This document shows, piece after piece, positions 43,746-62,600 of a stretch of 64,000 nucleotides of DNA. This DNA is from Hormiphora californensis (Eukaryota; Animalia; Ctenophora): NCBI GenBank assembly GCA_020137815.1, contig CM035351.1, positions 2,790,001-2,854,000 on the forward strand, read 5' to 3'. Numbering within the stretch: the stretch's first letter is position 1; each line of letters begins with the position of its first letter. The translations under genes and the position numbers were made by a program. The notes under the pieces were generated by a model. The model saw only the letters and a list, made by a program, of their open reading frames with translations. It did no database searches and was not told where the DNA came from.

Positions 43746-45614
43746 TCAGTCAATCTCGTGCCGAGTTTCTTCGCTTGGTGGAGTCTCTGAGCTTGGTTGA
43801 GTCTCTGAGCTAAGTTGAATCTCTGAGCTAAGTTGAGTTTCTAAATCTGCAGATGTTGGAGTTTCGGTGCTAAGTGGAGTCTCTGGATTTGATGGAGCTT
43901 CTGTATTTGGAGGGTCTCTCCTAAAATGCATGACCACCTCAAACTTCCGTGTATGTGGAAACATATCTACACTAACGGCCTTGACAAACTTGAATGGATC
44001 GCCCAGGAACTTGTTGGAGGTAGGTCCACAGAGTGCCACAATGTTATCCTTTATCTGAGTCACATCACAGCTCACATATACCAGCTCAGATATCATCTCG
44101 GTCTTCCGGAGACATGCAATCACCTCACTGTGTAGACCACTCCGGGGAGGATCAACTATCGCCACAATCCGACCTTTCTGGGGTATCCTTTTAACCGCTT
44201 TCGTTGTCATATGCTTAGCATTTCCCGCCAAAAATGTCACGTTACTCACACCGTTCCGCTCTGCGTTTTTAATTGCATCCTTCACGGCACTCTCGACAAT
44301 CTCAATACCATAAACATGTTTCACAGCGTGAGAGAGTATTAGACCGATAGTTCCAGTTCCACAACACACATCCATCAGATATGTATCCTTGTCAAGAGAT
44401 GCAAAGTCCCGGATGGTATTGTATAACACCTCCGCAGCAGCGGTGTTAACCTGGAAGAAAGATCCGGATGTGATTTGGAACTCCAGTCCGCACAACTTCT
44501 CCAGCATAGTTAGGGGTCCAGCCAGATGGAATATCTGTTCTTTCCCACCCACCAGTTTCAGGAACAGCGAAAAGGATTCCCTGCTCTTGTAGTACTCCTT
44601 CATCAGTTCCTTCACCTCACCCAGTCCAACTTCAGTTAGCTGCCTTTTATCGACAATTGCAGTGACCATGACATGACCCCCACTGTTGGTCCGTACCTCC
44701 AGTGCCTTCCATACACCAGTATTAGCGAGGGTGTCATAGGGAGGGAACTTGGAACCCTCGACCATGATTTTGAACGTTTTAACCTCAGCCAACATCTCAA
44801 CTGAACAGGTTTCCACGCACTCGCTCGCATCCTCCACAGATATGTTCCCCTGGGAAAATTGTCCCCGGACATACCCCACACAACAAAGATCACTCCTGTC
44901 AGCATTTGCACCCACGGTGAACTCACACTTGTTACGGTATCCTAGCAACGTAGGTGATGGTTTTATTTCTGTGAGCGCAAAATCCGGTCCTGCGAAATTT
45001 TTTCCACTCCAAGCGTATTTGACTGCACCAGTAAACTTGTCGAAGATGTCTTGTATTTCCAACGTTTTCAACTTCAGCTGTCCAGGGTATGGTGATTCGT
45101 AAAGAGGGGCCGTCTTCTCCCGGACTGGCACCGCCTCAACTGCACTCTGATTGGATCGCTGTTGTTTTACCAGTGGATTTTCATCAGCCGCTGCTTCTGA
45201 GGCCTTCAGTTTCCCTTTCTTCCACGTCAACTCATTTATAATGTTGATGGCGTTAAACCGCTCTTCATTATTCCTGAAGGTTACATAAGCAACAGCCCGC
45301 TTAAAGGGACGTTTAATCTTTACAATCTGAACATTGTTTCTTGTCAGGAACTTCCTCACTTCATTAGCGGTGGAGTATTTGGGAATGTTGAGGATTTGGA
45401 TCTTGAATATCTCAGAGGTAAAATTGTCAGTTGTTATCAGGGATTGTGAGTTGTCAGGCTGATTTTCTGTGGTGGGTACTGGTGGCTGAATTTCAGTGGG
45501 CTTTAGAGGTGCCTGGATATCGGGATCGCATTGAACATCCCTCACCACATCATCAGATTGATCTGCGGGTGTGCTAATTTCTATCCTGGGTCGTTTTACC
45601 TCTGGTTCTGCCAT
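43746..45614 (-). CDS. TRMT2A: tRNA (uracil-5-)-methyltransferase homologue A, single exon
   Basis: N-terminal RRM (SEIFKIQILNIP, AYVTFRN), GYRNKCEF, SFFQVN, DVCCGTGTIG, AIVDPPRSGL, VYVSC, VDMFPHT. Confidence 0.95.
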   Translation of the reverse strand: MAEPEVKRPRIEISTPADQSDDVVRDVQCDPDIQAPLKPTEIQPPVPTTENQPDNSQSLITTDNFTSEIFKIQILNIPKYSTANEVRKFLTRNNVQIVKIKRPFKRAVAYVTFRNNEERFNAINIINELTWKKGKLKASEAAADENPLVKQQRSNQSAVEAVPVREKTAPLYESPYPGQLKLKTLEIQDIFDKFTGAVKYAWSGKNFAGPDFALTEIKPSPTLLGYRNKCEFTVGANADRSDLCCVGYVRGQFSQGNISVEDASECVETCSVEMLAEVKTFKIMVEGSKFPPYDTLANTGVWKALEVRTNSGGHVMVTAIVDKRQLTEVGLGEVKELMKEYYKSRESFSLFLKLVGGKEQIFHLAGPLTMLEKLCGLEFQITSGSFFQVNTAAAEVLYNTIRDFASLDKDTYLMDVCCGTGTIGLILSHAVKHVYGIEIVESAVKDAIKNAERNGVSNVTFLAGNAKHMTTKAVKRIPQKGRIVAIVDPPRSGLHSEVIACLRKTEMISELVYVSCDVTQIKDNIVALCGPTSNKFLGDPFKFVKAVSVDMFPHTRKFEVVMHFRRDPPNTEAPSNPETPLSTETPTSADLETQLSSEIQLSSETQPSSETPPSEETRHEID

Positions 45615-45686
45615 CGTACTAGTGGGGCATTATCTGAGGTTAAAATATACACAAATATAAAACTCAGGCAAATAAAACGAACATTC

Positions 45687-45727
45687 TTTCAAACTTTTCA
45701 ACACTACTTTAAACAAATTAATTTGAG
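45687..45727 (+). other. Ctenophore spliced-leader exon sequence at the LINE 5' end (copy 1)
   Basis: TTTCAAACTTTTCAACACTACTTTAAACAAATTAATTTGAG, identical to 50575-50615; matches the ctenophore SL as I recall it. Confidence 0.85.
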
Positions 45728-45748
45728 GTGCGGCATCCTCCACCTCAA

Positions 45749-47062
45749 ATGATTTCAGAAGATATGTCCTCTACAAATACAACTGAGGAACAACTGCGGA
45801 TAATCTCGGAGCTGGTAGCTGAAGCGGATACCCCTGTCAAGGAGGTGCTCCAAGCCTATGATCCTGAGTTAACCTATGAGGAGATGCTACCGAAGATCGA
45901 AACACTCCCTGTAAGTGACCTAGAGGCTACTGCAGCTTTCCTCGGACAAGAGGTGACATGTGTGACTGGAGCGAAAAAATACCACTCAGAGAGAACACTG
46001 TCAGACTGGATTATCATGAGGACTGAGGCTCTCTTTCCCCAAACATGTAGAGAGTGTAGTGAATCCTATACGGTGAAAAGGACTGATACACCCCCCGTTC
46101 GGTGTAACTATTGCGATGCTGGACTTCACAACTGTGCGGCTATCCGTGCTGAAGCTGGGAACACAACCAACACAAGGAGCCGAATATGGATGTGCAACGA
46201 CTGTGTCTCAAAACATACTATTGAGAGGTTCAACAGTCACCTACCTGAGGGAGGTCCTCCAAACCCTACTCTTAATTCAACTCGACGCAGTTCAAATAGA
46301 GAGGTATTGGACAGAAGGACCAGTCAGCCTGCTGGCGGACGGAACGATCTTGCTGGCAGAAGGAATAATGGCCCACCTACCGGTGGAGATACAGGGTCGG
46401 ACACGGAGGTTTGTAAATTCTACCTGCAGAGGAGATGCCGACACGGCAAAAACGGAACCGCCAGGGTTGGAAACAGAACCTGCCCAAAAGCCCACCCCAC
46501 CCTGTGTAAAAAGTTCTGTAACTATGGAACCATGAGGAGATTTGGATGTAATACTGAAAATTGCAACCTATTTCATCCTCCCCTCTGTAAGAACTCAGAG
46601 TTACGTCACCAGTGCTTCAAACAAAACTGCATGAAGCAACATCTAAAAGATACTCAGCGGAGCCCGCCTTTTAGAGTTGATGAAGCACCCCGGAACACTG
46701 GTTTAAATGCTCGCAATGATCGTGACAGAAACCAATCCTCTCGGAGCAGGGGTGCAAACCAAGCACCTCCAAATGAACCAGGAATCTGGTCGTCTGAGCC
46801 AACTAGGGATAGGATACCAAGCAGATCCCAATGGCCTCAGGATCAGAACAGGGGCACGAGGCCTGACCCAGACCCGGCTTTTTTAGACGCCATCATCGAC
46901 CGTCTCAGGGACTCTATAGCCGGGATAGTGAGGATGGAAATGAGGAATCGCCCGGAGCGGGAGCCCGACCAACAGCACTACAGCTCCCAGCCGACCCAAC
47001 TCCCTCCAGGAATGGGCAACACATACAGTCCTCATCATCAGAGGGACAGACGGTCTTACTAA
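45749..47062 (+). CDS. LINE ORF1 (PHD-like Cys cluster plus CCCH-type zinc fingers)
   Basis: CRECSE..CNYC..HNC..WMCNDC; CKFYLQRRCRHG..CPKAHP..CKKF..C..FHPPLC; homologous to 50660-51958. Confidence 0.85.
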   Translation: MISEDMSSTNTTEEQLRIISELVAEADTPVKEVLQAYDPELTYEEMLPKIETLPVSDLEATAAFLGQEVTCVTGAKKYHSERTLSDWIIMRTEALFPQTCRECSESYTVKRTDTPPVRCNYCDAGLHNCAAIRAEAGNTTNTRSRIWMCNDCVSKHTIERFNSHLPEGGPPNPTLNSTRRSSNREVLDRRTSQPAGGRNDLAGRRNNGPPTGGDTGSDTEVCKFYLQRRCRHGKNGTARVGNRTCPKAHPTLCKKFCNYGTMRRFGCNTENCNLFHPPLCKNSELRHQCFKQNCMKQHLKDTQRSPPFRVDEAPRNTGLNARNDRDRNQSSRSRGANQAPPNEPGIWSSEPTRDRIPSRSQWPQDQNRGTRPDPDPAFLDAIIDRLRDSIAGIVRMEMRNRPEREPDQQHYSSQPTQLPPGMGNTYSPHHQRDRRSY

Positions 47063-50000
47063 ATACAGCAGGACCCTCAGTTCCCAGTAATCTCTCAAAA
47101 CTGTTGCTTCTAAACGCCCGTAGCCTGAACCCGTCTGCGGGCAGTGAGGCAAGGTTCAAACTGGAGAACTTGAAGGACACCATTATGAACTCAAATATTC
47201 CTGTCATGGCTGCAGCCATCACGGAAACTTGGTGGCGGGCAGAATACTCGGACGCACAGGTTAATATTCCTGGTTTTTCTGTCATCCGCAGCGATCGGGA
47301 AGGTAGGGTTGGGGGTGGCTGTGCCCTCTATCTCCACTCGTCGGTGACCCCTTCCGATCAGATCACATTTTGGGGGGGGGCCTGCCGCAAGAATCTCATG
47401 CCTCATTGGCGATTTTCAGGGTAGCTGGGATTTTTGAGATTTTCGATTTTTGGCTAAAAAACGTGGGATTTTTGAGATTTTTGAGGCAAATTTGCGATTT
47501 TTCGGGGGGAAACCGCAAATTTTTCTCAAAAATCTCATAGAAAGGAAAAATTTCGATTCGAAAATTTGGAATAGAAACAATCCTTGTGTTTTTTTACCGA
47601 AAATCAAAATTCTGAATAGAAATTTTCCTTGTGTTCTAGTACAAAAGTTAATGTGAAGCTAAAACATGAAATCTACCTATTTAAATTACTAAACTGATAT
47701 TATGATTCAGTTTTAAGTTAAAAAATATGTCAAAAAACTGAGTATTGGCGGCCAAAATTGTGCCAATTTACCACAAAAATCTCAAAAATCTCAAACGTAA
47801 TTGAGCAAATTTTCCCAAAAATCTCAAAAATCTCATCGGCCGAAAAGAGGGTAGCTGAGATTTTTGCGGCAGGCCCCCCCCCCATTTTCAGATGAAAGCA
47901 ACAGTGTTGTGGCGGTATACATTCCAAACATGAACTGTATTATCTCGTCAGTTTACAGGGCTCCCACAGTGCCTGTGAACCTAGTTCTTGGGATTTTGGA
48001 GGAATTTATCCCGCGTCACTCGTGTGAAGATTGTCCTCCAGATGTGTTTACGCTTGGTGACTTTAACATGCCTCAGGTAAACTGGACATCAGTATCAGCG
48101 GATCAGGGAAATGCTCTGGTTGACTTTGCTGAGAGAAATTTCCTTACCCAGTTGGTTACAGAGCCTACTAGAGGACGGAACATTTTAGACATTGTACTTA
48201 CAAACAGGGTGGATTATGTTTTTGACACCGATGTATCAGCCACCCAGATGTCGGACCACTCCATGGTGTCTTGTGTCCTCGGAATCGGGATCCACCAGTC
48301 CAAAACAGAACGTGCAGCAGCTGGAAGAGGATTCAAGGCCCTTGACTACCACAACGCAGATTTTACTGCTGCAGGAGAGGAGCTGAGCAGTATTGATTGG
48401 GACACACTCCTATCCTCTTGTATTTCAGACGATGATGGGCACTCAATTGTGCAGTGTATCAGAGAGAAGATACTAGAGGTATTTGAAAAACACAGCAAGA
48501 GAAAGAGGTTTGGTACCCAGAGAAAGAGAGATCCCTACCTGAGAAGACTGAAAAGGAGGCAGAAAAAGCTGAACTCTCGGATGAAACTGGCCAAGCAGAG
48601 ATGCTCACACCAGTCCCTCATCGATAAACTCGAACGCAAGATAGACAAGACAGCCGATAAGATTAAGGCGTACTTGTTAGGCCTGCTGGAAGTAAAGGAG
48701 AGGAAAGCCATTGACACTATCAAATCAAATTCACGGTTTTTCTGGTCCTTTGTCAACAAGCACCGAAAAATCAAATCGAGTGTGGCTCCACTCCTGAGAC
48801 CTGATGGTACAGTGACTGATGACCCTCTGGAAAAGTCAAATATTCTCCAGTCGCAATATGTAGGAGTATTCAGTGATCCGTCCATGTGCTCGGTTGAGGA
48901 GGCTATCAAGGACATTCCTTCTACGACCTGCACGCTAGATGAACTTGACTTCACCCCTGGTTGTATTGAAGCTGCACTGGCTGAATTGGACCCCTACGCT
49001 GGAGCACCTTCAGATGACATACCTGCGGTTATACTATCAAAGTGCCGGAAACAGCTAGCATACCCACTTTGGTTGCTCTGGAACCGTTCATTCACTGAGG
49101 GTGTTGTACCAGGTTGTCTCAAACGGCAACAGGTGACCCCAATTTTCAAAAAGGGTTCAAAGATGGAGGCTAAAAACTATCGCCCTGTTGCCCTCACATC
49201 CCATATGATAAAAACTTTTGAAAGGGTTGTGAGGAACAAAGTTGTGGATCACCTGGAGGGAAATGGAATCTTCAATGATGGTCAGCACGGCTTTCGGAGA
49301 AATAGGAGTTGTCTGACCCAACTTTTGAACCACTATGACAACATCATGCGTGAACTGAATAACGGTCTGGAAGTGGATGTTGTTTATTTGGATATGGAGA
49401 AGGCGTTCGATAAAGTCGATATCAAGGTTGGATAAGTGACTTTCTTTCAGCTAGAATACAGACAGTAGTGGTGGATGGAGTTCAGTCTCGGCCGGAACTC
49501 GTCATTAGTGGAGTCCCCCAGGGCACTGTTCTTGGCCCGCTTCTGTTCTTGGTTTATATGATAGACATTGAATCACTTCTTGCTGGAACAGTCCTAACTT
49601 TTGCAGATGACTCCAAGCTGTGGAAAGCGATCAGGTCACTCAACGACAGAGATAACCTGCAGCTGAGTCTTAATGAATTTGGACGTTGGGCTTCAGACAA
49701 CAATATGTCACTCCATCAGGATAAGTTTGAGGTGATAAATTATACACTTCGCTCCACCCAACTCCTGAGGGAGCTTCCTTTCTCCACTGACAATTATCTT
49801 TACAATGGTCCCGGAGGCGAGACAATATCACCAAGTTTCACTGTGAGAGATCTAGGGGTCCTTGTATCTGCAGACTGCACTTGGTCAGAACACATAGGCA
49901 GCATTACTGCCAAGGCTAGACGCATGAGTGGCTGGGCACTTAGTGTATTTCGGGATAGATCCGATGATACTATGCTAACGTTACTGAAGTCCATCATTAG

Positions 50001-50541
50001 GCCTCAGGTGGAGTACTGTTGTCCATTATGGAGCCCGGTGAAAAAGTCTGATATCGCCCTGGTTGAAGAGGCTCAAAGACACTTCACACGTAGGATTGAG
50101 AGCTGTTCCGGCATGGGGTACTGGGATCGGCTCCAACATCTTGGTATCTTGTCCCTCCAGCGGCGTCGTGAGCGATACATGATTATCCATGTCTGGAAGG
50201 TTCTTCATGAGGTAGTTCCAAACGGCACGGGTCTCCTGTTTACTGAGCACACCCGTCTTGGTACCAGAGCATTGGTCCCCCGTTACAATTACCTCGCTCA
50301 AAAATCCATATCTGGCCCTTATGACTCATCATTCGGTGTTAGAGGAGCACAGTTGTGGAATTCCCTACCCCGTGCAGTGAGAGAGGCAACATCACTGCTC
50401 GAGTTGAAACAGTCCCTTGGGTCCTACTTAACCACCATCCCCGACCAGCCACCTGTCCGCGGTTACCGGGTGGAGCACAGTAACTCCTTAATTGATTGGA
50501 GAAATGACCCCAGTGTGTTTAAAGAGATGGGCGAATCATAG
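47063..50541 (+). pseudogene. LINE ORF2 (APE endonuclease plus RT), disrupted
   Basis: LNARSL, ITETW, LGDFN, SDH, NYRPVALTS, QHGFR, SGVPQG, FADD; broken by the MITE at 47372-47882 and a ~49-nt deletion at ~49427 relative to the inner copy. Confidence 0.92.
47372..47882. mobile_element. MITE with G-run/C-run termini inserted in the LINE endonuclease
   Basis: G9-CCTGCCGCAAGAATCTC / GAGATTTTTGCGGCAGG-C-run; duplicated CATTTT (CACATTTT / CCCATTTT); removal restores Q-I-T-F-S-D. Confidence 0.9.
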
Positions 50542-50574
50542 AAATGTGTTTTGCTTTTCATTGTCATTTGGCTG

Positions 50575-50615
50575 TTTCAAACTTTTCAACACTACTTTAA
50601 ACAAATTAATTTGAG
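50575..50615 (+). other. Ctenophore spliced-leader exon sequence at the LINE 5' end (copy 2)
   Basis: 41/41 identical to 45687-45727. Confidence 0.85.
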
Positions 50616-50659
50616 GCGCGCGCCCGTGCGTTTTCAAATATTCCACTGTAGTGTCTAGT

Positions 50660-51958
50660 ATGGCAATGGACCATGCTAATGACACAGATCCAGCCGTCTT
50701 TGCTGCTGTACTCTCTGAGCTGAAAGAGGATGCCAGAACACCGGTTAAGGAGGTTATTGAAGTTTATGACCCTTCTCTGGACTATGAGGAAAACCTCAGC
50801 AAACTGGAGGCTATCCCAGCTAGTAATCTGGAGGCAACTGCTATCTTCCTTGGCCAAGAGGTTAGATGTGTGGCGTCTGGAGTGCAGAAATACCATTCAG
50901 TAACAACCCTGGCTGACTGGATCATCATGCGGATAGAGGGATTTGGTCCCCAAACATGCAGCGAGTGTACCGAAAAGTATTCCGTGAAGAGAAATGAAAA
51001 TCCCCCTGCTCGGTGCTTCATCTGTGGTGGCGGTCTGCACAACTGTGCTAAGATACGAGAAGAGGCCAGCAGCACTGCTATCAAAAGCCGAATTTGGGTG
51101 TGCTCCCCTTGCCTCGGTAAACAAACTCTGGAAAGGTTTACTAGCCATCTACCTGACGGTGGTCCAGATCCTAGTCATAACTCGACCAGACGTAGTTCAA
51201 ACCGAGAGCAGATCCTGGGAAGGCACATCAGCAGAACTGCAGAGGAACGAGAGGACCTACCGGACCCAGCGGAACAGGGAGAGAGGGTTGTTCCCGGAAA
51301 CGAAGTGTGTAGGTTTTATTTGCAAAGGAGGTGCAGACACGGGAGAGATGGGACGAAGCTAGTTAGTGGCAGATCTTGTCCCAAATCTCACCCTACACTG
51401 TGCAAAAAGTTTTGCAACTATGGATCTATGAGGAGCGTTGGATGCCAGAACACTGAATGTAACTTTTTCCATCCTCCACTATGTAAGAATTCTGAGTTAC
51501 GGCACCAGTGTTATAAACTCAGCTGTACCAAACATCACTTGAGGGACACCCTGAGGACTAGGCCTGGAGAAGGAACATCACGTGGGACTGGAAATGAGAG
51601 GAACCGCCGTGAAAGAATCCCTTCAGCCCAATCACGAACCACAGGTCAAAACCAAGCACCTGATGCAGGACCTTGGTCAAGTGAACCCAGTAGGGCGAGG
51701 GTGTCGAGTGGAGTCCAATGGTCCCAGTCTCAGAATCAGAGACCTGGACCAGATGCTGCTTTTTTAGAGGCAGTCCTCGATCGGCTGAGGGACTCAATAG
51801 CCGGGATAGTGAGAACAGAGATGAGGAATCGTCCAGAGCCAGAACCAGTTCTACTTCCAGACCAGTTATACTCCCAACACACCCAACCGGCTCAACTGCC
51901 GGCAGGAACAGGTTACACCTTCAGCCCTCATCAGCAGAGGGGGAGACGGTCGTATTAG
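50660..51958 (+). CDS. LINE ORF1
   Basis: Same Cys/His pattern as copy 1; ends RRSY*. Confidence 0.87.
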   Translation: MAMDHANDTDPAVFAAVLSELKEDARTPVKEVIEVYDPSLDYEENLSKLEAIPASNLEATAIFLGQEVRCVASGVQKYHSVTTLADWIIMRIEGFGPQTCSECTEKYSVKRNENPPARCFICGGGLHNCAKIREEASSTAIKSRIWVCSPCLGKQTLERFTSHLPDGGPDPSHNSTRRSSNREQILGRHISRTAEEREDLPDPAEQGERVVPGNEVCRFYLQRRCRHGRDGTKLVSGRSCPKSHPTLCKKFCNYGSMRSVGCQNTECNFFHPPLCKNSELRHQCYKLSCTKHHLRDTLRTRPGEGTSRGTGNERNRRERIPSAQSRTTGQNQAPDAGPWSSEPSRARVSSGVQWSQSQNQRPGPDAAFLEAVLDRLRDSIAGIVRTEMRNRPEPEPVLLPDQLYSQHTQPAQLPAGTGYTFSPHQQRGRRSY

Positions 51959-51999
51959 CTTCCGAGAAACCCTCAGTTCCCAGCAACCTTTCCAAACTT

Positions 52000-54958
52000 A
52001 TGCTGCTAAATGCTCGCAGTCTAAACCCGAGTGCTAAGTAGCGAAACAAGGTACAAGCTGGAGAATCTTAAAGACACTATTTGCAACTCTGATATTCCTG
52101 CCATGGCCGTAGCCATTACTGAAACTTGGTGGCGGGCTGAATTTTCAGATGCCCAGGTGGGTATCCCCGGTTATTCTATTATACGCAGTGATCGGGACGG
52201 CAGGGTGGGGGGTGGCTGTGCCCTATATCTTCATTCATCCTTGTCCCCCTCTGATCAGGTTGCTTTCTCAGATAACTGTAATAGTGTCGTTGCAGTCTAC
52301 ATTCCTAACTCAAACTTCGTTATTGCAACAGTTTACAGGGCCCCCACATCAAACCCACTCCAAGTCATCGGAATCCTGGAGGAGTTTATTCAACGCCATT
52401 CCTCCGGTGATTGTCCGCCTGAGGTTTTTGTGCTAGGTGACTTCAATATGCCCCATGTAAACTGGTCAAATCTTCCAACCGACCAGAGTAACTCCCTGGT
52501 TGAATTTGCTGAGAAAAATTTTCTTACCCAACTAGTGACGGAGCCCACGAGAGGTAAGAGTATCTTGGACATTGTTCTTACGAATAGAGTGGACTATGTC
52601 CTCGACATGGATGTAACGGCGACCCAAATGTCTGACCACGCTCTCGTTTCTTGCATTCTGGGAGTTGGGCTGAAACAGGCTAAGTCAGACTGCAAACGAG
52701 CTGCTAGAGGGTTCAAGGCACTTGATTACCACAATGCTGACTTCACCGGGGCACGTGAGGAGCTAGACGCTATCAACTGGGACGAACACTTAGCTCCATA
52801 TGACATGGAAGATGGCGGCCACGCCTATGTCCAATGTATTACAGAGATTGTTCTAGGCGTGTTCGAAAAGCATTCTAAACGGAAGGTTTTTAGCAATTTA
52901 AAGAAGAGGGATCCCTATCTGAAACGATTGAAAAGGAGGCAGAAAAAGTTGAACTCCCGGCTAAAACTTGCTAGGGAGAGATGTTCCTACCAGTCCCTGA
53001 TTGATAAGCTTAACCGTAAAATTGAGAAGACTGGTGATAGGATAAAGGTTCACCTCCTTGGGCTTCTGGAAGGAAGAGAGAGAAAGGCTATTGACACTAT
53101 CAAATGTAATCCACGGTTTTTCTGGTCATTTGTGAACAAGCATCGGAAAATCAAGTCTAGTGTGGCCCCACTCCTAAGACCTGATGGCACAGTTACCGAT
53201 GATCCCCTGGAGAAATCAAACATTCTTCAGTCACAGTATGTGGGGGTATTCAGCGATCCTGCTAAGTGTTCGGCCGAGGAGGCTACTAAGGATATTCCTT
53301 CTACGACCATCACACTGGACAATCTTGACTTTACTCCCGGCTGTATTGAGGATGCATTGGCTGAGTTAGATCCTTACGCTGGAGCACCACCAGGGGACAT
53401 ACCAGCGGTTATACTGTCCAAGTGCCGGAAACAGTTGGCATACCCCTTATGGTTACTTTGGGATTGTTCTTTCCATGAGGGTGTCGTACCAACATGCCTT
53501 AAACGCCAATATATAACACCCGTGTTTAAGAAAGGATCCAAAATGGAGGCAAAAAATTATCGGCCTGTCGCACTCACCTCCCACATGATTAAAACATTTG
53601 AGAGAGTTGTAAGAAACAAAGTTGTCGATCATCTGGAGGGAAATGGGCTCTTCAACGATGGCCAGCATGGTTTCCGGAGGAACAGAAGCTGCTTGACTCA
53701 ACTCTTAAACCACTACGATAATGTCATGAGAGAACTGAATAACGGACACGAAGTGGATGTTGTGTATTTAGACATGGAGAAGGCTTTTGACAAAGTCGAT
53801 GTCAAGGTCTTGATGGCAAAATTGGAAAAATACGGTATTCGGGGACAGCTACACCGTTGGATCAACAACTTCCTTTCAGAAAGAGTACAAACAGTGATGG
53901 TAGATGGTGCTCAGTCTCGGGAGGAATTGGTCATCAGTGGTGTCCCACAGGGTACAGTTATTGGTCCCTTGTTGTTTTTAGTCTATATGATAGACATAGA
54001 GACACTTCTTTCTGGCACAGTCCTCACCTTCGCAGACGATTCCAAGCTGTGGAAGGCAATCAAGTCATTGGATGATAGAGAGGATCTCCAGAAAAGTCTA
54101 GCTGTGTTTGCTCGTTGGGCGACAGATAACAACATGTCCCTACACCAGGACAAATTTGAAGTTATGAACTATACTCTTCGCTCCACCCAACTGTTAAGAG
54201 AGCTGCCATTCTCCAATGAAAACTACTCCTACAGTGGGCCTGGAGGCGAAACGATATCCCCTAGCGAATCTGTCAAAGACCTAGGAGTCCTTGTTTCAAC
54301 AAACTGTGCATGGTCGGAGCATATCGGCAGCATCACGACTAAGGCTCGTCGGATGAGTGGCTGGGCACTTAGTGTGTTTCGGGATAGATCGGATGACACC
54401 ATGCTAACCCTACTCAAATCCATCGTCAGACCCCAGGTTGAATACTGTTGCCCCCTATGGAACCCTGTCAAAAAGTCAGATATTGCACTGGTTGAGGAGG
54501 CACAGAGACAATTCACCCGCAGGATCGCGAGTTGTTCGGGCATGAATTACTGGGACAGACTCCATCACCTCAAAATCCTGTCCCTTCAACGGCGCCGAGA
54601 ACGATATATAATTATCCACGTCTGGAAGGTCTTGCATAAGGTAGTACCAAACAGTACGAGTCTCTTGTTTACAGAGCACCCACGCCTTGGCACCAGAGCG
54701 GTAATCCCTCGGTATAACTACTTGGCCCAAAAATCCATCTCTGGCCCCTATGACTCATCATTCGGCGTAAAAGGAGCTCAGTTATGGAATGCAGTGCCTC
54801 GGGTAGTGAGATCTTCAGCTTCCCTACTCGAGCTAAAGCAGTCGCTCGGTAAATATCTGTCCACCATCCCTGACCAGCCACCGGTTCGTGGGTATAGTGT
54901 TCAGCACAGTAACTCCCTGTTGGATTGGAGAAACGATCCGAGTGTTTTCAGAGAGTAA
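52000..54958 (+). CDS. LINE ORF2 (APE plus RT) with one apparent 1-nt insertion at ~52037
   Basis: MLLNARSLNPSA then a frame change to SSETRYKLE; the 975-codon ORF that follows is intact with FADD, YCCPLW and LSLQRRRERY. Confidence 0.92.
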
Positions 54959-55317
54959 ATCATTCAGGGGTGTTTTGCTTTTCTATGTTGTTTGGCTGCC
55001 CACTAAAACCCGATTCCTTTTGGTGTCTGAGTGTTAGCTCTTTTTGAGCTGAAACTTTGTGTACAATGCTTAATTTATTTATGAATGTTTATGAATGTTT
55101 ATAACCTGCTGACTTTCCATGTCATCTGAGTGTTGGCTCCTTTTGAGCTAAAGCTTTGTGTACAATACTAAATTTATTTACGAATGTTTACGAATGTTTT
55201 ACGAATGTAAAAAGTAACCAATAAACAAATCTATTTACATAAATGTAGTTATTTCACAAACAAAAATAAATGGTTGAGATTGTACAAAACTATCTTTTAG
55301 TAAACCTTGTAATGTTT

Positions 55318-56650: not shown

Positions 56651-59600
56651 CTATTGGACCTTTCTCGATAAACTTGGTGACTTCGGCACGAGATACTTGG
56701 TGGAAGATTTCTTAATCCTCTGGATGTTAACTTTAAGGTAGATAGGTTCTAAAACTCGACCAAAGAACCGTGGCTCTGTCACATCTGAGATCTGAACAAC
56801 ATACATTCCCGGAGCACCGAACTTTAGAAGATCCTTGTCCCTCTCTGCCCTTGCTCCCTGGACCCTCCATCTGTCCCTCTCCTGAAGGGGGGATTATTAC
56901 TGTCATAGACGGTATTGAAAACCACCGAGATTGTTGCTGAGCTGTACAGTAGGGGTTGCTAAGTTGAAAAATATCGCTTTCGAACATTATGTCTGGTATT
57001 CAGTAGGTAATTTTCTACTGATATCCGAAGTTTCAGCCCAAACGGTTGAGCCACTTCGAATCGCAAGCGACTTTCATAACCCGCGTTTTTGCGTAAATAA
57101 TGAGAATTTTAGGGATAATGAAGTCAATGGAGCACTATATTTTGTATACCTTGCTGTATACTCAAAATATCGCTTTCGAACATTATGTCTGGTATTCAGT
57201 GGGTAATTTTCTACTGATATTTGAAGTTTCAGCCCGAACGGTTGAGCCACTTTGAATCGCAAGCCACTTTTGTGACCCTTATTTTCGGTGAAAAATCGGG
57301 CAAAAATCGGGAAAAAATTTTGAAATTTTAAAATTTTAAAACACGGAAATTAGTCCCTAGAACATCCCAATACATGTGCAACATTTTAAAATTGTGTATT
57401 TTTGATTTTCAACTTAGCAGCCCTACCGACATAATATAAGTTTGAACAGGGTAATGGACAATGGTAAAACTTATACCATCTGGGGCCCGGGCGTCTGAAT
57501 TTGTTGAGTCATCACTCTAGCCCCCCTAACATTACGTCTAAGTTTTATACCACCCACACTCACATCAGGGGTAGCAGATCTGTCCTTGCGACCCGGTGCC
57601 GGGCTGTTCTTTCCCTTCTTCTTAGCTTTTGGTTTTGCTTCCTCCGTCTGTTCAACCTCCTCGTCTTCTGAATCAACTACCTCCAACATCTCGTGACCTG
57701 CAGGATAATGTTTAGTAGAGGGTGGTAGTAATACTAGACACTAGTTGCTTAAAGATAATGCAGCAAGATCAGATTCATTTCATCAAATTAGAAGGGTACT
57801 TTTTTTTTTACATCAGCTAAGTAATCAGGCATCAAGCAATATTTCGACGCCCATCTGCCAATTCGATGACAGAAGCCCATGCAACAGGATCAGGTTACCA
57901 TGCAGTGACTTACCCGCGTTAGGATTGACAAATGTGAACGCTGGGATATAAATTGTTTGTTCTGCCGAACCCTCAAAATACAATGTGAGCTACACAATAA
58001 ATTATATGACCCTCACTGTACATCAAATAAATTAGGATACATTTTCTATTGATCCATTGTTCTAACCTGGAATAACAACATTGGTCCAGGAGGCGTGTCC
58101 ACAGTGTGTTTTGTGGTCGGTAGTGGTCGGTTGGGGGCTTGGCAGGCGGATATATTCGTACCCTGATCGACTTACCGGTCTCTCCTGAAAGGGGCGTATT
58201 GATTATGATGCTATTTGGTATTATCATACCACTCAGCTGCTTCAATCATGCAAGTGTTTTTTGTTGTTGCTCAACAAAGTGTTTTAGGAATTTGGTCCTC
58301 ATACTCATAGGCCTTTTCACATAGCTAAACGACTATTTTATCAGCGGTTAGCCACGACTGTCCCCGCACGTCCAGGCCACCTACTCCCAGTCCCTATCAT
58401 CCATTGCGGCAGAGCTGTCAGGCAAATGCTCTGACAACAGCAGACGGAATCACACATCTGACTCCCACACTCACAAAATCACATGCAAGTTGATTGTCAC
58501 GGCGCGCAGCAACAGAAACACCTTTCCATCCACCTCTTTCATCACACCAAGTACCACGCGCGTTACTGTAAGTGCGAGTTTGGGACAAAATATTGTGACA
58601 TTGTGACAAACAACATCTGTCAAAATCCTTGGAATGTTCGTTTATTTTCCCCATTTCACTGAAGACTTCGTGAGTGGTGTTGTACTATGCACGGTGCCCC
58701 TGAAGGACGTTCCACCTCGACCGAGCCCCCCAAAAAAACGAACGGTTGTGTGACCTAAAGGGGACCTCTGGGAACTACGCAGGACCGTGGGGGAAAATAT
58801 ATCATAGTAGCCTAAGGAGAAAATCGCATTTTCCCTCACACTGGCCAAATTCTACATTCCACACTTTCAAATCTTATTTTTTCGGCCAAAATCAAGTCAC
58901 CCTAGGGTTTTTTGACACGCCGAATCGATTGCCGCTGGAATTGGAACTCTAAATCCACGGCAACATTGTTAAAATGGCGTTTTTTGGGGTTTTTTTGCGC
59001 TTTTTTGCCCTGAACTGCATTTATATGACGAGTGAGACTTCTGACTATATTTTTAAAGTGTTCCTCGGTCGATTTTCTTCCCGATTCCAAATTTTTGTGA
59101 AAATCGGTTACCAAGTAGATAAACTGTTAAAAATACAGCACTAATGAAAAATGACTGTTTCAGATGAGAACAATGTGACGCTCATACCTTTCCAAGTAGA
59201 TCTCTTCCCAGGCAAGAAACAGTGCTACTGGTCGATCAAAACATGACTTCTACATTCCCTAGAGGATAGGAGGGAGTGGAACATGGTGAGTACAAAATTA
59301 AAATTGATTGCCAAGTTACATTAATTGTTAGACAGGATTAAATGTACGCAACCGGGTATAAAAAATTAAAAGTGTAAATGGTATAGTCATAAATAGTTTG
59401 TAATGCTGTGAGTCTATACATGAGAAGCGTTATAAGCTAGCCCCGCTCTTCCCAGCTGCAGTTTGTAGTGGGGCGAGGTCATGTTGTTCACTTTGTAGTT
59501 GGACCACAGTGCATTCCAACTAGAATGTGCGTTCTCCAGCTCCTGCTCGGAGAACATCCCTAGAGGCCTACCCAAGTTATAATCTATGAACTCCTCCAAA

Positions 59601-62600
59601 TGTTCCTCAATGATGTGGAACTTGGTGGTGGTGGATGTTCCATAGTAGGCCCTAAGTGTGGAGAGGCAATCCCTGAACTCCTGTATTGCCGACCTGTATC
59701 CTGATTGGAGAGAGGGTGGTAGATGCTACATTCGGACCATGATTTAGTGGCACCCCAATTTAGTGGCATCCCGATTTAGTGGTCAAAACCCTTTCCCGCA
59801 AGGATGTCCGAATGTAGCATCTACCACCCTCTCTCCAATCAGGATACAGGTCGGCAATACAGGAGTTCAGGGATTGCCTCTCCACACTTAGGGCCTACTA
59901 TGGAACATCCACCACCACCAAGTTCCACATCATTGAGGAACATTTGGAGGAGTTCATAGATTATAACTTGGGTAGGCCTCGACTAGGGATGTTCTCCGAG
60001 CAGGAGCTGGAGAACGCACATTCTAGTTGGAATGCACTGTGGTCCAACTACAAAGTGAACAACATGACCTCGCCCCACTACAAACTGCAGCTGGGAAGAG
60101 CGGGGCTAGCTTATAACGCTTCTCATGTATAGACTCACAGCATTACAAACTATTTATGACTATACCATTTACACTTTTAATTTTTTATACCCGGTTGCGT
60201 ACATTTAATCCTGTCTAACAATTAATGTAACTTGGCAATCAATTTTAATTTTGTACTCACCATGTTCCACTCCCTCCTATCCTCTAGGGAATGTAGAAGT
60301 CATGTTTTGATCGACCAGTAGCACTGTTTCTTGCCTGGGAAGAGATCTACTTGGAAAGGTATGAGCGTCACATTGTTCTCATCTGAAACAGTCATTTTTC
60401 ATTAGTGCTGTATTTTTAACAGTTTATCTACTTGGTAACCGATTTTCACAAAAATTTGGAATCGGGAAGAAAATCGACCGAGGAACACTTTAAAAATATA
60501 GTCAGAAGTCTCACTCGTCATATAAATGCAGTTCAGGGCAAAAAAGCGCAAAAAAACCCCAAAAAACGCCATTTTAACAATGTTGCCGTGGATTTAGAGT
60601 TCCAATTCCAGCGGCAATCGATTCGGCGTGTCAAAAAACCCTAGGGTGACTTGATTTTGGCCGAAAAAAATAAGATTTGAAAGTGTGGAATGTAGAATTT
60701 GGCCAGTGTGAGGGAAAATGCGATTTTCTCCTTAGGCTACTATGATATATTTTCCCCCACGGTCCTGCGTAGTTCCCAGAGGTCCCCTTTAGGTCACACA
60801 ACCGTTCGTTTTTTTGGGGGGCTCGGTCGAGGTGGAACGTCCTTCAGGGGCACCGTGTATGTGATTGGGGAGAGTCACGTGATCGGTCTGAGAGGCCGGC
60901 TCATGTGACATCCACCCAAAGGGTTACACATAGTACAACAGTGGGCCTGAAAAGCTCAACACGTGCAGATTTATAAGTGGGCTCCACTAATAGAAGGAAT
61001 CAGAAAAAAGGTCATCAGGGAACTCAAGAGATTTAAAATAGATTCAGTTTATTAAAATCAAGTGCTGGTTGACTGTTACCTTGTCATCTATAACAGGGCT
61101 CTCAGTACCCTGATCTACTACTACTGTAGCAGCCTGGGGTTAGCAAACAGATATGAATGGAGTGGTTTTATAACAACCAATACCTCCCTAACCTCCCAAT
61201 ATATTATCATGATTATGATATAATATCCTGGCCTGATCCCGACTTGTCCATACCTTTACACAATGTCAACTTAATTCCAACCACCCTGTACAGCAAGGGG
61301 GAGACCCCCATGTTACCTTTTCAGGGATATCCTCGTAATCAGTTTGTCTGGTACGGGGTGTCACCTCAGCTAGGTTCACCAACTTCACATCCCCGAACGG
61401 AGTGGTGAAGGTTGGAGCAGTGTCGGCCAGTTCCGGGCGCACTTTTGTACTCTTGTCCGCCGCTACAGTGGGGAATTGGGATTCAAAAAGCTTGCTTTTT
61501 TTGTGGGGAGATGAGTTAACACAGAAAATACATTACATGAAGGGTTGGACAGAAAGCATCTCTTGAACGGTATGTTGTCTACTTACGTGCGGAAAGAAGT
61601 CCAGCTTTAGTTTGTAAAACTCTCCCACTATCTCCCTCCATAACATCTCCACTGCTGTGCAAAACAGCCACCTCTGAAATGGGAGATTGTGAGGGGCTTC
61701 ATGTTGCATCTTGATATAATGTGAGCTACTTCATTCTTCATCATAACCGGATAATAACCGCGACAACTATCATTTGTAATACTGAAAAGTATTTACAATA
61801 CCGATAGTAAGATAGTACATACCGATAGAAAAAGGTTCTCCCTGAAAGACCTCTATCTCAGAAGCTCCCACAAGAGCCATACCACAAGCGAACTCTTCAG
61901 GCGGAATCTCATTGTGTATCCACAGACCACTGTACGTTATCCCTGTGGAACCAATGAGTAGTTCAAACAAAACTAGTGAACAACAACATAAATGTAGCAA
62001 GATCAGGGAAAGCTTCGTTGCAAATTTTGTTCCCATTATATACCTGTGCAGTGTATGTAAGTGCCCTGTCCTTGTTTCAGGCCATGATTGAATTGTCCAT
62101 CGTAAGTGCTTCCATCTGCGAATGTCATGTTACCATGACCATGTGGTTTATCCGACACCCACCCTCCCTCATACTTCCTGCCATCAGCCCACACCTAGAG
62201 AGGTACAGGTGACTGTTAGGAAGAGGTCTGAGAACTAGGCGCGAGTCCAGACTCCTGATAATTTGATAGTAATTGAAATCAAAATACGGGTGTTGCAACA
62301 CAACGATGAACGATATAATGTTTGCAGTTAGTTATCACGCCTAAGGAGATCCTATTTTTACCTGTTCCCCATCGCCATGTCGTTTGTGAAGGTGAAACTG
62401 TCCAGTAAAGATGTCCCCACTGTCACTCAACAACATTCCATTCCCCTCGTACTTATTCTCTAGCCACTGACCCTCGTACCTTCTCCCATCACCATACTTC
62501 ATCTGCCCCTTCCCACTCAGCTCACCCATTTCAAACTCTCCTAAAACGAGTCTGATTATCAAAATAAGTCGTACAAGTGTTATATTACCATGGCGTGTAT

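Follow-up and report, generated by a model that had tools for sequence, protein, structure and literature searches.

How does a retroelement come to begin with the complete spliced leader (SL) of its host, and why should it then carry sequence that folds back over the end of that leader? The question is raised by two long interspersed nuclear elements (LINEs), copy 1 and copy 2, in a 64,000-nucleotide (nt) stretch of the ctenophore Hormiphora californensis (assembly GCA_020137815.1, contig CM035351.1, forward-strand positions 2,790,001 to 2,854,000; hereafter the window, numbered from its first letter). Renewal of the 5' end, together with expression at a new site, is a central problem of LINE retrotransposition and is solved elsewhere by internal promoters or ribozymes. 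Here, the two copies share one 42-nt block letter for letter (45687-45728 and 50575-50616), with no further occurrence in the window, and without its last G it is the published H. californensis SL. The SL stands at the exact 5' boundary of each retroposed unit, behind unrelated upstream flanks, as in SL-relict retroposition. All 41 of its 41 nt are identical between the copies, although their proteins from the first open reading frame (ORF1) are only 59% identical, and the SL of a second organism (organism B) is the same. Its single AG (AG1) is terminal and preceded by 40 AU-rich nt, and its end forms a 12-nt palindrome (CAAATTAATTTG). In the reading that we favour, a hairpin over this end would act as a structure-controlled switch between two trans-splice acceptors, AG1 and a second AG downstream (AG2); we judge it about equally likely to be right or wrong.

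Behind the SL, each element carries a short cassette that opens with GT (45728) or GC (50616) and closes with AG2 shortly before the ORF1 start codon. An earlier note on this DNA had described this order together with a hairpin across each SL junction; the order holds in both copies, and re-folding confirmed the positions and sequences of both hairpins. In copy 1, 45721-45730 and 45741-45750 are exact reverse complements; in copy 2, 50609-50621 and 50626-50639 form 13 pairs. Both cassettes, which share 16 of 31 aligned nt, are predicted to pair with the last 7 nt of the SL. AG2 sits 8-12 nt beyond the stem base, ending 5 nt before ATG 45764 in copy 1 (at 45758) and 8 nt before ATG 50660 in copy 2 (at 50651), and the whole 5' untranslated region (UTR) measures only 36-44 nt. 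A further in-frame ATG (45749-45751) lies in the 3' arm of hairpin 1, so that an ORF1 protein longer by 5 residues is possible from the long RNA of the copy 1 family (family 1) only.

We counted a junction hairpin where at least 5 of the last 7 SL nt were expected to pair downstream and the junction was closed with p>=0.8, thresholds chosen after the two copies had been seen. These were passed by 2/93 host SL-mRNA loci and by 74/1000 and 19/1000 dinucleotide shuffles, which places each copy above chance. A perfect 10-bp junction helix like that of copy 1 was found in 0/93 host loci and 4/1000 shuffles. The contiguous Watson-Crick run of copy 2, only 3 bp, is ordinary and is attained by 62/93 host loci. 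Searches against Rfam returned nothing at the gathering score in the window and no cassette match at E<=1.

The note had further claimed that the element sequence complements the end of the SL and that pairing is kept through sequence change. RNAalifold on the two aligned copies bears this out (n=2): of 8 pairs, 3 are unchanged, 3 shift from G-C to G-U, 2 have changed on both sides and 0 are broken. As the first 7 nt of the 5' arm are invariant SL, covariation is possible in the inner pairs only, and the comparison rests on two homologous, hence non-independent, cassettes. The two full sequences are suggestive, rather than statistical, evidence for a stem maintained through two-sided and G-U changes.

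Further family members, known from contig fragments only, also carry the anti-SL arm, which recurs in other subfamilies and in organism B. At least one contig of sequencing run X5 reads TTTTTCAG after 45748, with an ATG 2 nt on, and at least two contigs of run X1 match SL and cassette up to 45748 (with 2 and 4 other letters) and then diverge. In organism B, at least two contigs continue after 50620 with a loop that differs from copy 1 at 2/8 places, the arm CACCTCAA and another tail ending in TGTAG; their first five cassette letters would be GTGCG, judging from a C>T variant at 50617. A family-2 contig (the family of copy 2) from the same organism shows 0 differences over 50589-50639, and two variants split off from 50640, the longer with 17 differences in 189 nt overall. 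At the level of sequence, the anti-SL arm and the AG persist as loop and tail turn over, in two organisms.

The note had also expected an RNA with the SL spliced to the second AG. Two contigs of run X5 have such a junction: in one, 45727 is followed directly by 45759, with loss of exactly 31 nt (GT..AG), and in the other 50615 by 50652, with loss of exactly 36 nt (GC..AG); both are cut exactly at the SL end and at YAG (Y, pyrimidine), that is, at the very acceptors the note had named. Two forms therefore exist, SL/cassette/ORF1 and SL/ORF1. When folded, the short form of copy 2 has no stem over the junction AG and that of copy 1 has a weaker, different pairing. Deletion at the hairpin base was rejected as the source of the short forms, because the joints begin in the middle of the 5' arm and finish 8-12 nt past the 3' arm, away from the stem base.

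Whether these joints are DNA or RNA depends on X5, whose sample and study differ from those of the best-matching run and whose library type is a guess. Contigs running upstream of the SL number 24 and 14 in X5, like the DNA runs X1 and X2, and 1-3 per place in X22, a run guessed to be RNA. Because X5 behaves like DNA, the short forms probably arose by retroposition of spliced RNA; in an RNA library they would be the spliced RNA itself. The joints were not seen in contigs of runs X1, X2 and X12, but contigs lose rare variants, so that this is no proof of absence. In the runs guessed to be RNA (X22 and X7), cassettes and element 5' bodies are uncovered except for one low-depth ORF1 piece in X7, which is uninformative either way.

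From the SL identity and the AG2 joints, we infer that the SL is added to the template RNA by trans-splicing. Under the favoured reading, a genomic element copy would be transcribed by read-through, and its SL copy, AU-rich and free of AG in the 40 nt before the terminal AG, would act as outron and branch region. A fresh SL spliced onto AG1 would restore the full 5' end letter for letter, and such renewal would explain why the SL stays identical to that of the host as the elements diverge. With the stem folded, AG1 would be buried and the branch region drawn near AG2; by analogy, yeast introns bypass one AG in favour of another through the same geometry (PMC3239191). Splicing at AG2 would yield a trimmed RNA that lacks a stable stem, has the SL 5-8 nt ahead of the ORF1 ATG and is probably translated better than the long one. 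Reverse transcription would be open to both RNAs, and the cassette would be inherited only via the AG1-spliced RNA.

To place the two copies among other SL-headed sequences, a metagenome scan by exact 25-nt SL match gave 107 matches at 106 loci. Of these, 93 are host-like mRNAs, partly redundant, 12 are 5' ends of LINEs or LINE-like elements from ctenophore-like sources, and the last is an SL RNA gene. The SL pattern had 0 matches in viral and genome contig sets, and an ORF1 query in viral contigs gave 6 pattern matches, 0 of them confirmed. Where at least 5 nt precede the full SL (n=10), 8 loci are LINE or LINE-like 5' ends, one is the SL RNA gene and one a host mRNA with 6 extra nt. The second open reading frame (ORF2) is visible in L020, L029, L032, L049 and L063; L066, L098 and L105 carry ORF1 homologues of ORF2-bearing loci, and L009, L054, L096 and L101 were classed as LINE-like by ORF1 likeness and a common 5' motif only. 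At least three types of ORF1 occur among the 12 loci; L063, the closest relative outside the window, has an ORF1 31-33% identical to those of the window. Beyond the search pattern, the SL has another 16 nt; of the 11 LINE-like loci with flanks, 7 carry all of them unchanged, 1 departs at the first nt and 3 are 5'-cut.

A TTTYAG acceptor stands between SL and ORF1 in 8/12 LINE-like loci (5 of them of one clade), compared with 2/89 host 5' UTRs and 7/93 host loci when the first 165 nt are considered. The SL runs straight into TTTCAG in L063 and L101 and into TGTTCC... in L020-type elements, with no donor. Because most SL-headed LINEs lack GT or GC after the SL, the retained acceptor would serve trans-splicing, and an acceptor kept without a donor points to trans- rather than cis-splicing. 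Two acceptors are thus general and the long stem is a subclade feature; the hairpin as a universal feature of SL-headed LINEs was rejected (1/12 loci).

Other structures and junctions were seen beside the SL. The first 50 nt after the SL in L009, L054, L096 and L101, and partly in L063, share a GCCC-N4-GGGC stem followed by AGAA in otherwise unrelated elements; the motif had no Rfam match at E<=0.5 among the loci tested. In L020, L032, L098 and L105, the first 12 nt after the SL form a much weaker junction hairpin (5-6 bp, 3-nt loop), in which an A/G change preserves pairing and which reaches the thresholds in L020 alone. One contig of run X2 links SL nt 1-30 via CA to a second SL start (window 50574-50603). 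In run X12, at least three organism-B contigs run from the SL plus 3 nt (50618) into one other common sequence, which may be a further SL-headed family or a second type of SL RNA gene.

The remaining locus, L068, is likely a ctenophore SL RNA gene, tandemly repeated together with 5S rRNA in units of 778 bp: its two SL exons (692-735 and 1470-1513) are that far apart and alternate with 5S rRNA genes (263-381 and 1041-1159). It has no match among the SL families of Rfam. The exon agrees with the window SL at 42/42 nt, and each exon continues with GTAAGCTGAG..., unrelated to either cassette; at least one loose end in run X1 starts with the same intron letters. In the predicted first stem of this SL RNA, UUUGAG|GUA pairs with UACUUUAAA upstream in the exon, and 0.03 of the last 7 SL nt are predicted to pair downstream. 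Because the SL RNA junction pairs with the upstream exon and those of the elements pair downstream, both by prediction, the element hairpins are modelled to compete with, not copy, the junction stem of the SL RNA. The earlier interpretation is supported in part: SL complementarity, arm retention and the AG2 joints speak for it, whereas its suggestion of stem-loop I mimicry fails on the unrelated intron start and the opposite direction of pairing. An SL exon with SL intron in its gene array is seen in L068 and not in the elements, which were rejected as SL RNA genes; an SL serving as insertion target within such a gene was rejected as well, with no SL-intron or 5S flank beside the elements.

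Several observations weigh against an acceptor switch, and the main difficulty lies in the proportions of the two forms. A folded stem should favour AG2, yet long forms seem to dominate in X5 by a weak measure, contig depth (855 versus 28.5, and 647 and 941 versus 297). LINE proteins usually prefer their own RNA in cis, which would favour copying of the translated short RNA. Taken together, the deeper long forms and this preference mean that an extra step would be needed: either AG1 would be used often or the long RNA would be the favoured template. GAG is also unusual as a splice acceptor, and the host acceptor examples in the window end in CAG. Each short form is one contig from a single run with 25 nt on its shorter side, and might formally stem from a 2-nt AG/AG microhomology deletion. 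The covariation comes from 2 full sequences, and the stem conservation in organism B (0/24 versus 17/159 differences; Fisher p=0.13) is not significant alone. Owing to the palindromic SL end, 5 pairs would come for free from a decayed second SL. Lastly, among the 12 LINE-like loci only L020 passes the hairpin thresholds and L063 fails, so that an SL-headed element can complete its life cycle without the stem.

Two rival explanations stay alive because long forms dominate although a folded stem should favour AG2. The cassette could be a miniature intron (GT/GC...AG), removed in cis from an SL-capped RNA, with the hairpin hiding the donor and sparing some full-length template. Behind an AG exon end, both cassettes do begin with a donor dinucleotide, and they close at YAG; the product would equal the observed joints, the sole variation seen at +2 among the variants listed is C/T (50617), and the higher depth of long-form contigs agrees. 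We nevertheless consider such a mini-intron unlikely: animal spliceosomal introns are usually longer than 31-36 nt, related SL-headed LINEs (L063, L101 and L020-type) retain the downstream acceptor without a donor, and AG1 trans-splicing would still be required for SL renewal. Alternatively, the genomic SL could mark the element's own transcription start from an internal promoter, SL plus cassette forming an outron whose hairpin damps AG2 trans-splicing, so that unit-length RNA survives. The element 5' ends, which fall within 0-3 nt of the SL 5' end, would suit such a start, as would the proposal of relict SLs as basal promoters in Symbiodinium (PMC5585692) and the report of no more than marginal trans-splicing in C. 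elegans mRNAs that bear 5' hairpins (PMC9984361). Identity of a 41-nt SL over deeply diverged families, however, fits renewal from SL RNA more easily than selection, which leaves an own start distinctly improbable.

The pairing itself might need no function, if the cassette were a decayed second SL plus old flank and the hairpin a by-product of SL self-complementarity. Apart from the 12-nt palindrome, the tandem SL joint in X2 and the common tandem relict SLs of Symbiodinium, about 30 nt apart (PMC5585692), speak for this, and the copy 2 cassette resembles the SL 5' half to a degree equalled by 2/93 hosts and 1/2000 shuffles. The likeness of copy 1 is ordinary (18/93 hosts, 299/2000 shuffles), and some resemblance is inevitable in any anti-SL arm. 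The inner 3-6 pairs, moreover, are not SL-derived yet survive two-sided changes, and the arm is retained as loop and tail turn over. As history, the outer pairs may plausibly descend from a relict SL, which leaves the inner pairs unexplained; as the full account, such an origin has only a slim chance of being right. A role of the hairpin as cis-signal in reverse transcription or in 5' joining (packaging, pausing or second-strand priming), and none in splicing, is very unlikely. Both window copies are 5'-complete, family-2 depth in X2 is alike at the 3' and 5' ends (500 versus 484, a weak measure), and SL hairpins self-prime cDNA in vitro (PMC9984361); but the retained AG2 would go unexplained, stem-less short forms integrated with their SL, and L063 and other SL-headed LINEs are 5'-complete without a stem. 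That the hairpin mimics stem-loop I, or that an SL RNA gene supplied the 5' end through insertion into it as in NeSL/CRE/SLACS, is largely refuted and hardly credible: although the copy 1 SL is followed by GT and its arm can pair over 9 bp in trans with the true SL RNA exon/intron junction, the L068 intron start is unlike the cassettes, its junction is predicted to pair with the upstream exon, and no SL-intron or 5S flank adjoins the elements.

An acceptor switch in SL-headed LINEs touches several known systems. NeSL-1, CRE, SLACS and CZAR are non-LTR (long terminal repeat) elements that insert in SL RNA genes with a restriction-like endonuclease. The window elements likewise are non-LTR elements adjoining an SL exon, but they have an APE endonuclease, dispersed sites and no SL-intron flank; with a methyltransferase gene and another LINE as flanks, membership in this group was rejected. 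With CR1/L2-type LINEs, they share two ORFs, APE and reverse transcriptase domains, a Cys-rich ORF1, 3' tandem repeats and the lack of target duplication; in contrast to these, their 5' end is a host SL with a 36-44-nt UTR.

The nearest parallel comes from dinoflagellates, where relict SLs are described on retroposed mRNAs (Song et al. 2017, PMC5585692; Slamovits and Keeling 2008 cited therein). There too, an SL heads retroposed sequence, and an AG within it is proposed as acceptor for the next round (PMC5585692). Here, the carriers are autonomous-type LINEs and the SL, instead of decaying, is whole and renewed; its only AG is terminal, so that re-splicing would leave no relict, and an anti-SL stem and second acceptor follow. 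In Hydra, about 30% of Iso-Seq reads from transposable elements are reported to carry an SL by trans-splicing, hence a comparable use of the host machinery (PMC12220107), although the available part of that account places the SL on RNAs and not on genomic 5' ends, and describes no hairpin/two-acceptor cassette. The COF1 and UBC13 introns of yeast have a mutation-proven stem between branch point and 3' splice site (PMC3239191) that likewise hides one AG and brings the AG in use closer, in cis-splicing of host genes there as opposed to inferred trans-splicing in a retroelement here. In poorly trans-spliced C. elegans mRNAs, a 5' hairpin is tied to the extent of trans-splicing, as it may be here, but it replaces the SL, whereas the present hairpin pairs with the SL itself (PMC9984361). 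In the literature searched, mostly titles and abstracts, we found neither ctenophore SL-headed LINEs nor an anti-SL two-acceptor cassette. The feature is real and extends SL-relict retroposition; the function given to its stem is a proposal.

The H. californensis SL is reported in 718 genomic copies and on 56% of Iso-Seq reads, and that of M. leidyi in 491 genomic copies; the accessible part of that report assigns no origin to the copies (PMC8527503). SL-headed LINEs offer an explanation for them. If true, host SL trans-splicing with hairpin-set acceptor choice would be a further solution to LINE 5'-end renewal. A likely 5S-linked ctenophore SL RNA gene is now on hand for comparison. We advance the complete picture tentatively, as somewhat more likely to fail than to hold: promoterless ctenophore LINEs would be rebuilt each cycle by trans-splicing at the AG of their own SL, a subclade would use a hairpin switch to split template from mRNA, and SL-headed LINEs of several clades would make up most of the hundreds of dispersed SL copies.

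Table 1 Positions of the two SL-headed LINEs, their 5' features and neighbouring features in the window
Feature	Position	Strand	Description
SL, copy 1	45687..45727	+	41 nt, terminal AG = AG1; identical to copy 2 SL, published leader and L068 exon
Hairpin 1	45721..45750	+	Perfect 10-bp stem across SL/element junction
Cassette, copy 1	45728..45758	+	31 nt: GT..., anti-SL arm 45741-45750, pyrimidine tail, AG2 (45757-45758)
ORF1, copy 1	45749..47062	+	ATG 45749 inside stem arm, ATG 45764 after AG2
ORF2, copy 1	47063..50541	+	APE and reverse transcriptase (Exo_endo_phos_2, RVT_1); broken by 511-bp insertion and by 49-nt deletion near 49426
MITE-like insertion in ORF2, copy 1	47372..47882		511 bp; 19-bp perfect G/C-rich terminal inverted repeats
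3' UTR, copy 1, first part	50542..50574	+	Interrupted by copy 2 insertion
SL, copy 2	50574..50615	+	42 nt, terminal AG = AG1; first G common to copy 1 3' UTR
Hairpin 2	50609..50639	+	13 pairs including 3 G-U, one bulged U; spans junction
Cassette, copy 2	50616..50651	+	36 nt: GC..., anti-SL arm 50626-50639, tail, AG2 (50650-50651)
ORF1, copy 2	50660..51958	+	432 amino acids
ORF2, copy 2	51959..54958	+	APE and reverse transcriptase; one frame change near 52040; open frame 52103-54958
3' UTR, copy 2	54959..55100	+	Ends in two 10-nt tandem repeats (55081-55100); no poly(A), no target duplication
3' UTR, copy 1, remainder	55101..55209	+	Ends in about three 10-nt tandem repeats (55179-55209)
tRNA (uracil-5-)-methyltransferase gene	43746..45614	-	Single ORF, divergent; ATG 72 bp from copy 1 SL

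Both elements are APE-type LINEs: in each copy, ORF2 passes the Pfam cut-off for PF14529/PF03372 (APE) and, behind it, PF00078 (reverse transcriptase), ORF1 precedes ORF2, LTRs are lacking and the tail is a simple repeat (Table 1). The 3' part of ORF2 is 76% identical between them at the DNA level. Copy 1 ORF1 has Cys-rich PHD-like and CCCH-like motifs, judged by eye; it matches no Pfam family above cut-off, and the Atlas lead zf-CCCH scores <0.9. Because other family-1 contigs continue past 50574 with the letters found from 55101 onwards, copy 2 is nested in the copy 1 3' UTR, and a head-to-tail tandem arrangement was rejected; the insertion cost 5-6 nt of target and made no duplication. Short tandem repeats at the 3' end and the absence of a target-site duplication, features of the CR1/L2 group, agree with a tentative assignment to that group. 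The near-equal depths of family-2 contigs in X2, given above for the 3' (50474-50516) and 5' (50606-50800) ends, are a weak hint that family-2 copies are mostly full length, which would be unusual among CR1/L2-type elements.

Upstream, the methyltransferase gene has its own acceptor-like AG at 45634-45635, and the LINE lies 52 bp from that acceptor. One X1 contig fits the flank 45586-45693 with 8 differences and then departs from the window, possibly as a second haplotype without the LINE insertion. Within the 511-bp insertion in copy 1 ORF2, which resembles a miniature inverted-repeat transposable element (MITE), Rfam gave sub-threshold miRNA matches only. Further downstream, a large near-perfect foldback occupies 58687-60860, with arms of about 1.05 kb and a 68-nt centre.

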